A DNA stretch of 7,590 bases from a virus (Duplodnaviria > Heunggongvirae > Uroviricota > Caudoviricetes), in IMG/VR virus record IMGVR_UViG_2778261559_000019, one strand, 5' to 3'. The position numbers and the translations under genes were made by a program. Below the pieces are notes generated by a model that ran no database searches, was not told where the DNA came from, and saw only the letters and a program-made list of their open reading frames with translations. Of this stretch, positions 799 to 1,400 are shown in pieces. Numbering within the stretch: the first letter of the stretch is position 1; each line of letters starts with the position of its first letter.

Positions 799-851
799 AA
801 TTTAGAATAGCCTAAGAGTTATGGTCAAGCTTTTTGTGTAGAAAAACCTAA
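799..851 (-). promoter_or_regulatory. leftward early promoter with two operator-like sites (TTAG-N6-CTAA)
   Basis: Minus-strand -35 TTGACC (complement of 823-828) and weak -10 TAAATT (complement of 799-804). Sites TTAGaatagcCTAA (802-815) and gTAGaaaaacCTAA (838-851) match the motif found three times in the divergent region at 1336-1400. Confidence 0.4.
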
Positions 852-926
852 GCCTCTTGATGTAAAAAACACAAGTATTTGAAAGTTTGTGCTTTTTATT
901 ACAGAGAGTTGCGAAAAAAAGGGGGG

Positions 927-1334
927 TTATTTATTTGCGCTTCTTTTGCGAGCTTTGAGTAGTTCTTCAAAAAGTTTGTTGAAATTCTCAACTCGAGCAC
1001 GCATCTCTGACAACAGAGCCTTTTGCTCTGACTCAGGCAGTGCGTCGAACAGTTGAAGCAACTCTTTTTGATCTTCTGTCAGATTTACTGGCTGATTATC
1101 TGGGATCGGTTCGCCTGGTTGCTTATCTTCATCTCCAAAAAGAAGCCAAGTCGGCGAGCACTGAAGCGCCTGGCTCAGTGCGAATAATCTCTTCCCCGCT
1201 GGCTGTGTTTCATCTCTTTCCCATTGAGAAATTGTTACGTGAGCCACTTTGACCAGCTTACCTAATGCGGCCTGAGACAGTTTTAATTTTTTTCGCCTGT
1301 ATAAGAGGCGAGCACCGAAGGTTTCGTTTTTCAT
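927..1334 (-). CDS. dicA: HTH XRE-family prophage repressor, DicA-like (135 aa)
   Basis: N-terminal HTH (LSQAALGKLVKVAHVTISQWERDETQPAGKRLFALSQALQCSPTWLLFGDED) and C-terminal ALPESEQ...MRARVENFNKLFEELLKAR closely resemble E. coli Qin DicA as recalled; same length; divergent from a Cro-like gene with three operator repeats between them. Confidence 0.88.
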   Translation of the reverse strand: MKNETFGARLLYRRKKLKLSQAALGKLVKVAHVTISQWERDETQPAGKRLFALSQALQCSPTWLLFGDEDKQPGEPIPDNQPVNLTEDQKELLQLFDALPESEQKALLSEMRARVENFNKLFEELLKARKRSANK

Positions 1335-1335
1335 A

Positions 1336-1400
1336 TTAGGTAATTCTAATTTTTCTTGACTTAGGTTTCTCTACGATCTAGTTTCCTTAGGAAAATCTAA
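1336..1400. promoter_or_regulatory. divergent immunity switch: three operator sites (TTAG-N6-CTAA) overlapping a rightward promoter
   Basis: Sites at 1336-1349 (TTAGgtaattCTAA), 1361-1374 (TTAGgtttctCTAC) and 1387-1400 (TTAGgaaaatCTAA), spaced 25-26 bp. Plus-strand -35 TTGACT (1356-1361), 17-bp spacer, -10 TAGTTT (1379-1384). The first site abuts the repressor start codon. Confidence 0.5.

Follow-up and report, generated by a model that had tools for sequence, protein, structure and literature searches.

Five conserved palindromes around the repressor gene of an enterohaemorrhagic E. coli prophage, the probable operators of a P22/DicA-type immunity switch

The stretch of phage DNA analyzed here (IMG/VR record IMGVR_UViG_2778261559_000019, 7,590 nucleotides, hereafter the window) carries five short palindromes on the two sides of a repressor gene, and we confirm that they are there, that their clustering is not random and that they are conserved. 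The window matches PPompW, a lambdoid prophage of enterohaemorrhagic E. coli (EHEC), at 99.9% identity; several records join this prophage to an Stx2a phage. Very probably, the five sites are the repressor operators of a P22/DicA-type lambdoid immunity switch in PPompW. For this prophage, binding at all five sites, relative affinities, cooperativity and transcript starts are inferred, site occupancy from homology and conservation, whereas binding, repression and antirepression were demonstrated in E. coli K-12 and in P22. The original prediction had placed five operator-like sites sharing TTAG-N6-CTAA on both sides of the repressor gene; reading of the sequence and a pattern search find each of them in its place:

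802-815 (18-bp form 800-817), left site OL1: TTAGAATAGCCTAA, exact match to TTAG-N6-CTAA; situated within the spacer of the leftward promoter, with an overlap into the -10.
838-851, left site OL2: GTAGAAAAACCTAA, one mismatch (GTAG…); lies 9 bp upstream of the leftward -35.
1336-1349, repressor-proximal right site: TTAGGTAATTCTAA, exact match; counterpart of P22 OR3 and K-12 Oa.
1361-1374, middle right site: TTAGGTTTCTCTAC, one mismatch (…CTAC); counterpart of P22 OR2 and K-12 Om; starts on the final base of the rightward -35 and takes up the spacer.
1387-1400 (18-bp form CCTTAGGAAAATCTAAGG, 1385-1402), cro-proximal right site: TTAGGAAAATCTAA, exact match; counterpart of P22 OR1 and K-12 Oc.

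The motif said to be common to the five sites holds strictly for three of them, as 838-851 and 1361-1374 depart from it by one mismatch each. Start-to-start distances are 25 and 26 bp among the right sites and 36 bp between the left sites. A better description of the site is 18 bp long, nCTTAGR-N4-YCTAAGn, the N6 of the first description taking in one semi-conserved R/Y per side. The TTAGG half is turned toward the repressor gene in every site, the full CTTAGG is found in 5 of the 10 half-sites, and only 1387-1400 has both a CTTAG core on the two sides and an AAAA centre. As a candidate rule, half-site position 5 would be G in the gene-proximal and A in the distal half; this is true of all five sites here but fails in relatives L003 and L091, and the position was treated as R.

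Could a short degenerate pattern cluster in this way by chance? The motif specifies 8 bases, two of the sites need a mismatch, and, if one mismatch is tolerated, five or more matches turn up somewhere in 17 of 200 shuffles of the whole window. Against this, all five sites lie within 283 non-coding bases around one repressor gene (the AT-rich stretches 720-926 and 1335-1410), where 0.29 matches with at most one mismatch are expected and where none of 5000 dinucleotide-preserving shuffles reaches five. Exact matches number three, compared with 0.12 expected from whole-window shuffles, and beyond the five sites no TTAG-N6-CTAA at one mismatch or less is present in the 7590-bp window or in 19.3 kb of the same prophage. 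Moreover, the positions of the sites are conserved across genera. Chance clustering is thereby already refuted, and we give it next to no weight. Two matches with two mismatches, at 1022 and 1273 inside the repressor gene, were considered as extra sites and rejected, as they are within chance expectation (17 such matches for the rest of the window).

Conservation was quantified in a same-immunity set of 48 distinct sequences, comparing 40 core positions with 203 other non-coding positions for difference from the window. Core positions differ at a mean frequency of 0.004, compared with 0.110 elsewhere in the non-coding DNA, and the hypervariable 7 bp between 802-815 and the -35, directly beside the invariant OL1, differ at 0.41. 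The cores of 802-815, 1336-1349 and 1361-1374 are invariant in this set, that of OL2 varies at 0 to 0.026, and 1387-1400 is conserved. The deviant half-sites CTAC and GTAG are themselves conserved. Relatives were found in Pantoea, Enterobacter, Erwinia, Escherichia ruysiae, E. albertii, Buttiauxella, Citrobacter and Yersinia and among IMG/VR prophages; a scan of genome contigs gave 11 loci, of which the indel-ridden L012 and L013 were left out of the alignments. Across genera, TTAG and CTAA are positionally fixed in the gene-proximal, the cro-proximal and both left sites, while centres and flanks change. Likewise, the position of 802-815 is conserved in Pantoea, Enterobacter, Erwinia, Citrobacter, Buttiauxella, E. 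albertii, E. ruysiae and K-12, and the distance between OL1 and OL2 in relatives is 34-37 bp. The middle right site has its TTAG in every relative, that half adjoining the -35, and its CTAC only in the window-like clade.

Comparison with the published DicA/DicC operators of the K-12 prophage Qin gives a positive result. Oc, the K-12 site TTGTTAGTCATAACTAACAA, has the TTAG-N6-CTAA core with TTG/CAA flanks (Yun et al. 2012, PMC3441716). Multicopy clones of the dicA-dicC promoter region were obtained only with point mutations in Oc, and an rpsL reporter revealed DicA-dependent repression in vivo via Oc that is abolished by a CTAA to CTCA change; DicA at Oc represses dicC and activates dicA (PMC3441716). 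Oa, Om and Oc were first described by Bejar et al. 1986, as cited by Yun 2012 and Ragunathan 2023. The dicA-dicC intergenic region and dicBp both carry operators like those of lambda PR and PL (Ragunathan et al. 2023, PMC10448788); DicA represses dicBp, DicC is Cro-like, and the Qin protein Rem relieves repression by DicA (PMC10448788). The places of the sites correspond as well. Oc lies two bases after the dicC promoter -10, the same place as 1387-1400 relative to -35, -10 and the dicC start, and K-12 Oa (TTAGCTAATGCTAA, its core perfect) is directly adjacent to the dicA start codon, like 1336-1349 here. In dicBp, TTAGCCATGACTAA, an opposite-strand TTGACC and TATGCTATAGCTAA are the counterparts of 802-815, 823-828 and 838-851, respectively. 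The flanks differ, CTTAGG…TCTAAG here and TGTTAG…CTAACA in K-12 (18-bp position 2 is C here and G in K-12), and these differences probably set immunity specificity. The second left site reads GTAG…CTAA here and TATG…CTAA in K-12, and the right half of the middle right site is near-complete here (CTAC), whereas K-12 Om is degenerate.

The two genes that the original prediction took for a repressor and a cro-like gene are indeed homologues of DicA and DicC (63% and 83% identical). They are divergent, with an intergenic region of 76 bp:

927-1334, minus strand: repressor gene, annotated dicA; 135 amino acids, with a P22 C2-like helix-turn-helix (HTH) N-terminal domain and a short helical C-terminal part.
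1411-1638, plus strand: cro-like gene, annotated dicC; P22_Cro (PF14549, E = 3e-13), 83% identical to DicC.

The identity of the repressor to K-12 DicA extends over 131 of its 135 residues, including the C-terminal ALPESEQ…MRARV.NFNKLFEELLKAR block. In Pfam it matches HTH families only (HTH_3), with no match to Peptidase_S24, and its residues 2-69 match the DNA-binding domain of P22 C2 (1ADR, 2R1J, 3JXB) with E about 1e-21 and identical numbering. The cro-like protein is expected to bind the same operators. The ribosome-binding site of its gene is AAGGGG here and AAGGAG in most close relatives (G for A at 1403), a change that could lower Cro-like translation in this copy.

The sites are intertwined with two promoters, and a hairpin follows the repressor gene:

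799-828, minus strand: PL-like promoter, equivalent of dicBp; TTGACC (828 to 823), 18-bp spacer, TAAATT (804 to 799), called by a consensus scanner.
1356-1384, plus strand: PR-like promoter, equivalent of dicCp; TTGACT (1356-1361), 17-bp spacer, TAGTTT (1379-1384), read from the sequence.
863-898, minus strand: hairpin with a U-run, an inverted repeat with a 12-bp stem, directly after the repressor stop codon.

Both hexamers of the rightward promoter, TTGACT and TAGTTT, are present as predicted, and 1361-1374 fills the spacer between them. The -35 is kept in all relatives, and the -10 position reads TAnnnT in each of them (TAATCT, TAATTT, TATTTT, TATCTT); the layout is that of K-12 dicCp, the start of which was mapped by Yun et al. 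(PMC3441716). In 18-bp frame, 1385-1402 reads CCTTAGG-AAAA-TCTAAGG, and 1387-1400 covers the predicted rightward transcript start. As to the left side, both sites had been thought to overlap the leftward TTGACC promoter. This stands for 802-815, which lies over the spacer and reaches 3 bases into the -10, whereas the TTGACC -35 lies between the two sites. This -35 is kept in relatives and in K-12 dicBp, and the leftward transcript is predicted, by analogy with P22, to start near 792. The hairpin 863-898 has an RNA fold of -14.4 kcal/mol (z = -3.4), a simple terminator scanner made no call there, and it is probably the terminator of the repressor gene; this assignment and that of the rightward promoter are based on comparison with relatives and on folding.

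For the repressor gene itself, the site 1336-1349 holds a -10-like hexamer TAGAAT (1348 to 1343, minus strand), 8 nt ahead of the repressor ATG. The hexamer is conserved in every relative, and the gene has no Shine-Dalgarno sequence. In P22, the PRM -10 (TAAGAT) is likewise inside OR3, and the annotated RM start is mapped 4 nt before the c2 ATG. Given that TAGAAT matches the position of the P22 PRM -10, that it is kept in every relative and that a Shine-Dalgarno sequence is missing, we infer a weak, nearly leaderless maintenance promoter for the repressor. The maintenance transcripts of lambda cI, P22 c2 and paaR2 of CP-933P (PMC8630535), to which this promoter is likened, are leaderless or nearly so too. 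For K-12, neither Yun et al. (PMC3441716) nor the Reg-Seq study (PMC7567609) could identify a dicA promoter.

The arrangement as a whole follows that of P22 immC. In the orientation of the window, the annotated P22 region reads CAT-AG-(OR3 TTAAGTCATCTTAA)-AT-AAAC-TTGACT-(OR2)-GATAAT-(OR1 TTAAGTGTTCTTTAA)-…-ATG(cro), and the window reads CAT-A-(TTAGGTAATTCTAA)-T-TTTTC-TTGACT-(TAGGTTTCTCTAC)-GATC-TAGTTT-CC-(TTAGGAAAATCTAA)-GG…ATG. Both show the order repressor ATG, operator, TTGACT, operator, -10, operator, ribosome-binding site, cro ATG, with centre-to-centre spacings of 25 and 23 bp in P22 and of 25 and 26 bp here. The left sides are also alike: PL is TTGACC-17-TAAATT in P22 and TTGACC-18-TAAATT here, with identical hexamers and OL1 in the spacer of both. 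The position of 802-815 matches that of P22 OL1 as well as that of the K-12 dicBp site TTAGCCATGACTAA, and P22 OL2 is the counterpart of 838-851. The predicted left operator is thus present as two sites downstream of the repressor gene, whereas P22 has three; no counterpart of OL3 is found at two mismatches or less in 852-926, where the terminator-like hairpin lies. Together, gene identities, the K-12 Oc core, the P22-like layout and conservation support the interpretation of the region as an immunity region, as the original prediction had it.

The geometry of the sites, a dyad of 18 bp divided 7 + 4 + 7, is also shared with P22, where the repressor dimer contacts positions 2-7 and 12-17 and not 8-11 (PMC4267663). 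The half-sites, nCTTAGR here and ATTTAAG in P22, differ at positions 2 and 6, and therefore this immunity type is different from that of P22; the K-12 Oc half-site TGTTAGT differs from that of the window at positions 2 and 7. Position 2 (T in P22, G in K-12, C here) is likely to be the immunity-specific base, judging from the sequences. Compared with P22 C2, the repressor keeps Q21, V33, S36 and Q37 and has S31A, N32H and A34T in the recognition helix, and also E44Q and N46A; the three changes in the recognition helix may plausibly account for the new specificity. We expect 1387-1400 to be the strongest of the sites, as Oc, OR1 and OL1 are, because it has the most symmetric flanks, CTTAG cores on both sides and an A-tract (AAAA) centre. 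A/T-rich or A-tract operator centres are bound tighter by the P22 repressor, and its N46A mutant binds only A-tract-centred operators (PMC4267663). Residue 46 is Ala in the repressor here and Asn in P22 C2, and the centres of 1387-1400 and 838-851 are AAAA; possibly, this combination is a clue to the affinity ranking.

Are all five sites operators of the repressor? Several observations weigh against it. In K-12, Om and Oa alone did not bind DicA in vivo, although the core of Oa is perfect (PMC3441716, data not shown there), and because of this isolated Oa the TTAG-N6-CTAA core alone is not sufficient for binding. For some of the five sites, binding may consequently require cooperativity, be confined to the Cro-like protein or not occur. 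The middle right site, the weakest of the five and the least conserved across clades, is not conserved outside the window-like clade, its right half being CGCG or similar in the K-12-like relatives. The rightward -10, TAGTTT, matches the consensus at 3 of 6 positions and is below the threshold of the scanner, which did not call the promoter. Finally, conservation of the right sites could come in part from overlapping constraints on promoter and ribosome-binding site; for the flanks of 1387-1400 it is ambiguous, since the cro-like gene has its ribosome-binding site partly within the right flank. Hence the tripartite right operator of the original prediction stands as three sites spaced by 25 and 26 bp, with the qualification that the middle one is imperfect, that its right half is lost in the K-12-like clade and that the isolated K-12 Om and Oa did not bind DicA.

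These observations fit a switch simpler than three-plus-two, in which only 1387-1400 and 802-815, the counterparts of Oc and of the main dicBp site, are functional repressor operators, and in which the other three, two of the five sites being imperfect, are left over from a P22-like ancestor or serve the Cro-like protein alone. All five cores are, however, essentially invariant in this immunity type, the deviant half-sites included, while neighbouring positions vary up to 41%. The middle right site and OL2 (838-851) are reverse complements at 14 of 15 positions (an inverted repeat, 93% complementary) and share the same GTAG/CTAC deviation. Because CTAC and GTAG are conserved and the two weak sites mirror each other so closely, we consider them selected weak sites rather than decayed ones. 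The pattern points to sites that depend on cooperativity, as OR2 and OL2 of P22 and lambda do, and cooperative binding is invisible to single-site assays. We thus regard the two-operator switch as improbable, and five repressor operators as the better account.

Nor is it easy to assign the sites to another factor. They lie in AT-rich promoter DNA, and interference by H-NS/Cnu was reported at the K-12 dicA promoter (PMC3441716), so that a YdaT/CII-like protein, a host nucleoid protein or IHF might bind there, or the repeats might be by-products of AT-rich promoters. Local dinucleotide-preserving shuffles, however, never give five sites, the motif is that of the genetically defined K-12 DicA site (PMC3441716), the homologous P22 C2 domain uses sites with this half-site spacing and 18-bp geometry, and conservation sits in two 4-bp half-sites and not in AT-rich DNA generally. 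Binding by a different factor is therefore very unlikely, though somewhat less so than chance.

With five repressor operators, the switch would work as follows. A dimer of the 135-residue repressor would place one helix-turn-helix in the major groove of each nCTTAGR half-site, one helical turn apart, leaving the central 4 bp uncontacted as the homologous P22 C2 domain does on its 18-bp sites. Repressor at 1387-1400, at the start of PR, together with the weaker 1361-1374 in the spacer, would occlude PR and keep the cro-like, YdaT-like and replication genes silent. The site 1336-1349, overlying the -10 of the maintenance promoter, would be bound preferentially by the Cro-like protein and by repressor in excess. 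At the left, 802-815, aided by 838-851, would block PL and silence the leftward operon with its dicB-like division inhibitor, exonuclease, xis and int. Induction is expected to proceed via the Rem-type antirepressor encoded at 6737-6994 and not by RecA-stimulated cleavage, because the repressor has no S24 self-cleavage domain and a Rem homologue is encoded. The best-supported description of such a switch is the standard two-repressor bistable type.

A more speculative possibility, which we hold to be doubtful, is that the left and right operators are paired by a short repressor-mediated DNA loop, and that Ala at repressor residue 46 might make the A-tracts of 1387-1400 and 838-851 the main determinant of affinity. 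The looping idea arises because the weak sites mirror each other (14 of 15 positions, GTAG/CTAC), the TTAGG halves face the repressor gene and the sites are about 520 bp apart. If true, OL and OR would be joined in a compact loop by a repressor that is without the C-terminal domain normally serving oligomerisation and cleavage.

The operators are embedded in a gene order known from the PPompW record, which lists, leftward, int, xis, an exonuclease pseudogene, a 'cell division inhibition protein', ydfC and a hypothetical gene and, rightward, dicC, a YdaT-family gene, O- and P-like replication genes, paa/adfO, hok/gef, rem, ydfU, rusA and Q. Accordingly, ydfC and the 'cell division inhibition protein' lie downstream of the left operator on the same strand, in the operon that it would control. 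Two rightward genes bear on the switch:

1622-2173, plus strand: YdaT-like gene (Pfam YdaT_toxin), overlapping the end of the cro-like gene by 17 nt.
6737-6994, plus strand: Rem homologue, 72% identical to K-12 Qin Rem.

The YdaT family is named 'toxin' in Pfam, yet its member in CP-933P is a CII-like activator (PMC8630535). As for Rem, by eye no LexA-box-like CTGT-N8-ACAG was seen in about 140 bp upstream of 6737-6994, no systematic search having been made.

Further features were noted beside the switch. The hairpin 863-898, with A- and T-runs at its sides, lies between the repressor stop codon and the left operators, in the position of P22 OL3, and probably terminates transcription in both directions, insulating the repressor gene against the leftward promoter. 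In the predicted leader of the leftward transcript (760-798), the block CTGAGAACACCGTGCGGTGTCTTGATG with a 6-bp hairpin at 771-787 is kept from K-12 dicBp to the Pantoea and Citrobacter relatives and could be a processing, pause or antitermination element; over a 79-nt segment, the fold of its hairpin is no better than that of shuffles (z = -0.4), and it has no Rfam match. The Rfam scan detected no known RNA element near the operators, its sole match being sok (RF01794, 6214-6363, plus strand, 103.9 bits). This match overlaps a hok/gef-like open reading frame (6304-6516, plus strand, annotated 'phage maintenance protein') in a hok/sok-type toxin-antisense module. The early right operon of the prophage also carries a cargo gene, that of the adherence factor paa/adfO (5267-6025, plus strand), which has the fold of periplasmic solute-binding proteins (SBP_bac_11, E = 5e-34). 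The 19-bp unit CTGCCGTCCGGCATCGTCC forms a perfect tandem repeat of 3.4 copies at 7476-7539 inside the annotated ydfU-like coding sequence (window start 7343); a change in copy number would shift the ydfU-like frame, as 19 bp is not a multiple of three.

The analysis maps operators and promoters precisely for an immunity type that is common among lambdoid prophages of EHEC. A 1-kb query (window 700-1700) at 80% coverage or more is present in 751 of 5426 complete E. coli genomes, and the prophage carries the paa/adfO adherence gene. Knowing the sites allows homo-immune and hetero-immune DicA-type prophages to be predicted from half-site position 2 (C here, G in K-12, T in P22). No new regulatory principle is revealed. 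Systems of this kind go back to Bejar et al. 1986 and 1988, as represented in the papers citing them, and have been studied thoroughly in P22; for the operator set of this particular immunity type, which follows directly from homology, no description was found in the literature searched.

Among known systems, K-12 Qin is the closest, sharing an orthologous repressor and Cro-like protein, the same gene order, the -35s TTGACT rightward and TTGACC leftward, TTAG-N6-CTAA in Oc, Oa and the main dicBp site, and a Rem homologue in the same prophage. The sites here, however, are carried by a lambdoid prophage of full length, which has genes for replication, Q and terminase, whereas Qin is a cryptic remnant. 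P22, the Cro of which belongs to the same Pfam family, differs in its repressor, since C2 has an S24 (LexA-like) self-cleavage domain that the 135-residue repressor is without, similarity stopping at residue 69. A YdaT-like protein stands here where P22 has C1/CII, and unlike in P22, no gene-24/N-type antiterminator or annotated nut sites are seen here. The cryptic prophage CP-933P of E. coli O157:H7 (PaaR2/YdaS/YdaT, PMC8630535) likewise has a divergent repressor/Cro-like pair followed by a YdaT-family CII analogue, with repeated intergenic palindromes over PR and PRM and more at PL; its repressor mRNA is leaderless and its expression bistable (PMC8630535). PaaR2 is, however, unrelated in sequence to DicA, and a toxin-antitoxin pair is embedded in the CP-933P operon. 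Prophages of the Gifsy/Fels type, as far as they are described through Lemire et al. 2011 (via PMC10448788), resemble the present one in having a short non-cleavable repressor inactivated by a small antirepressor, and differ from it in that the Gifsy antirepressors are under LexA control.

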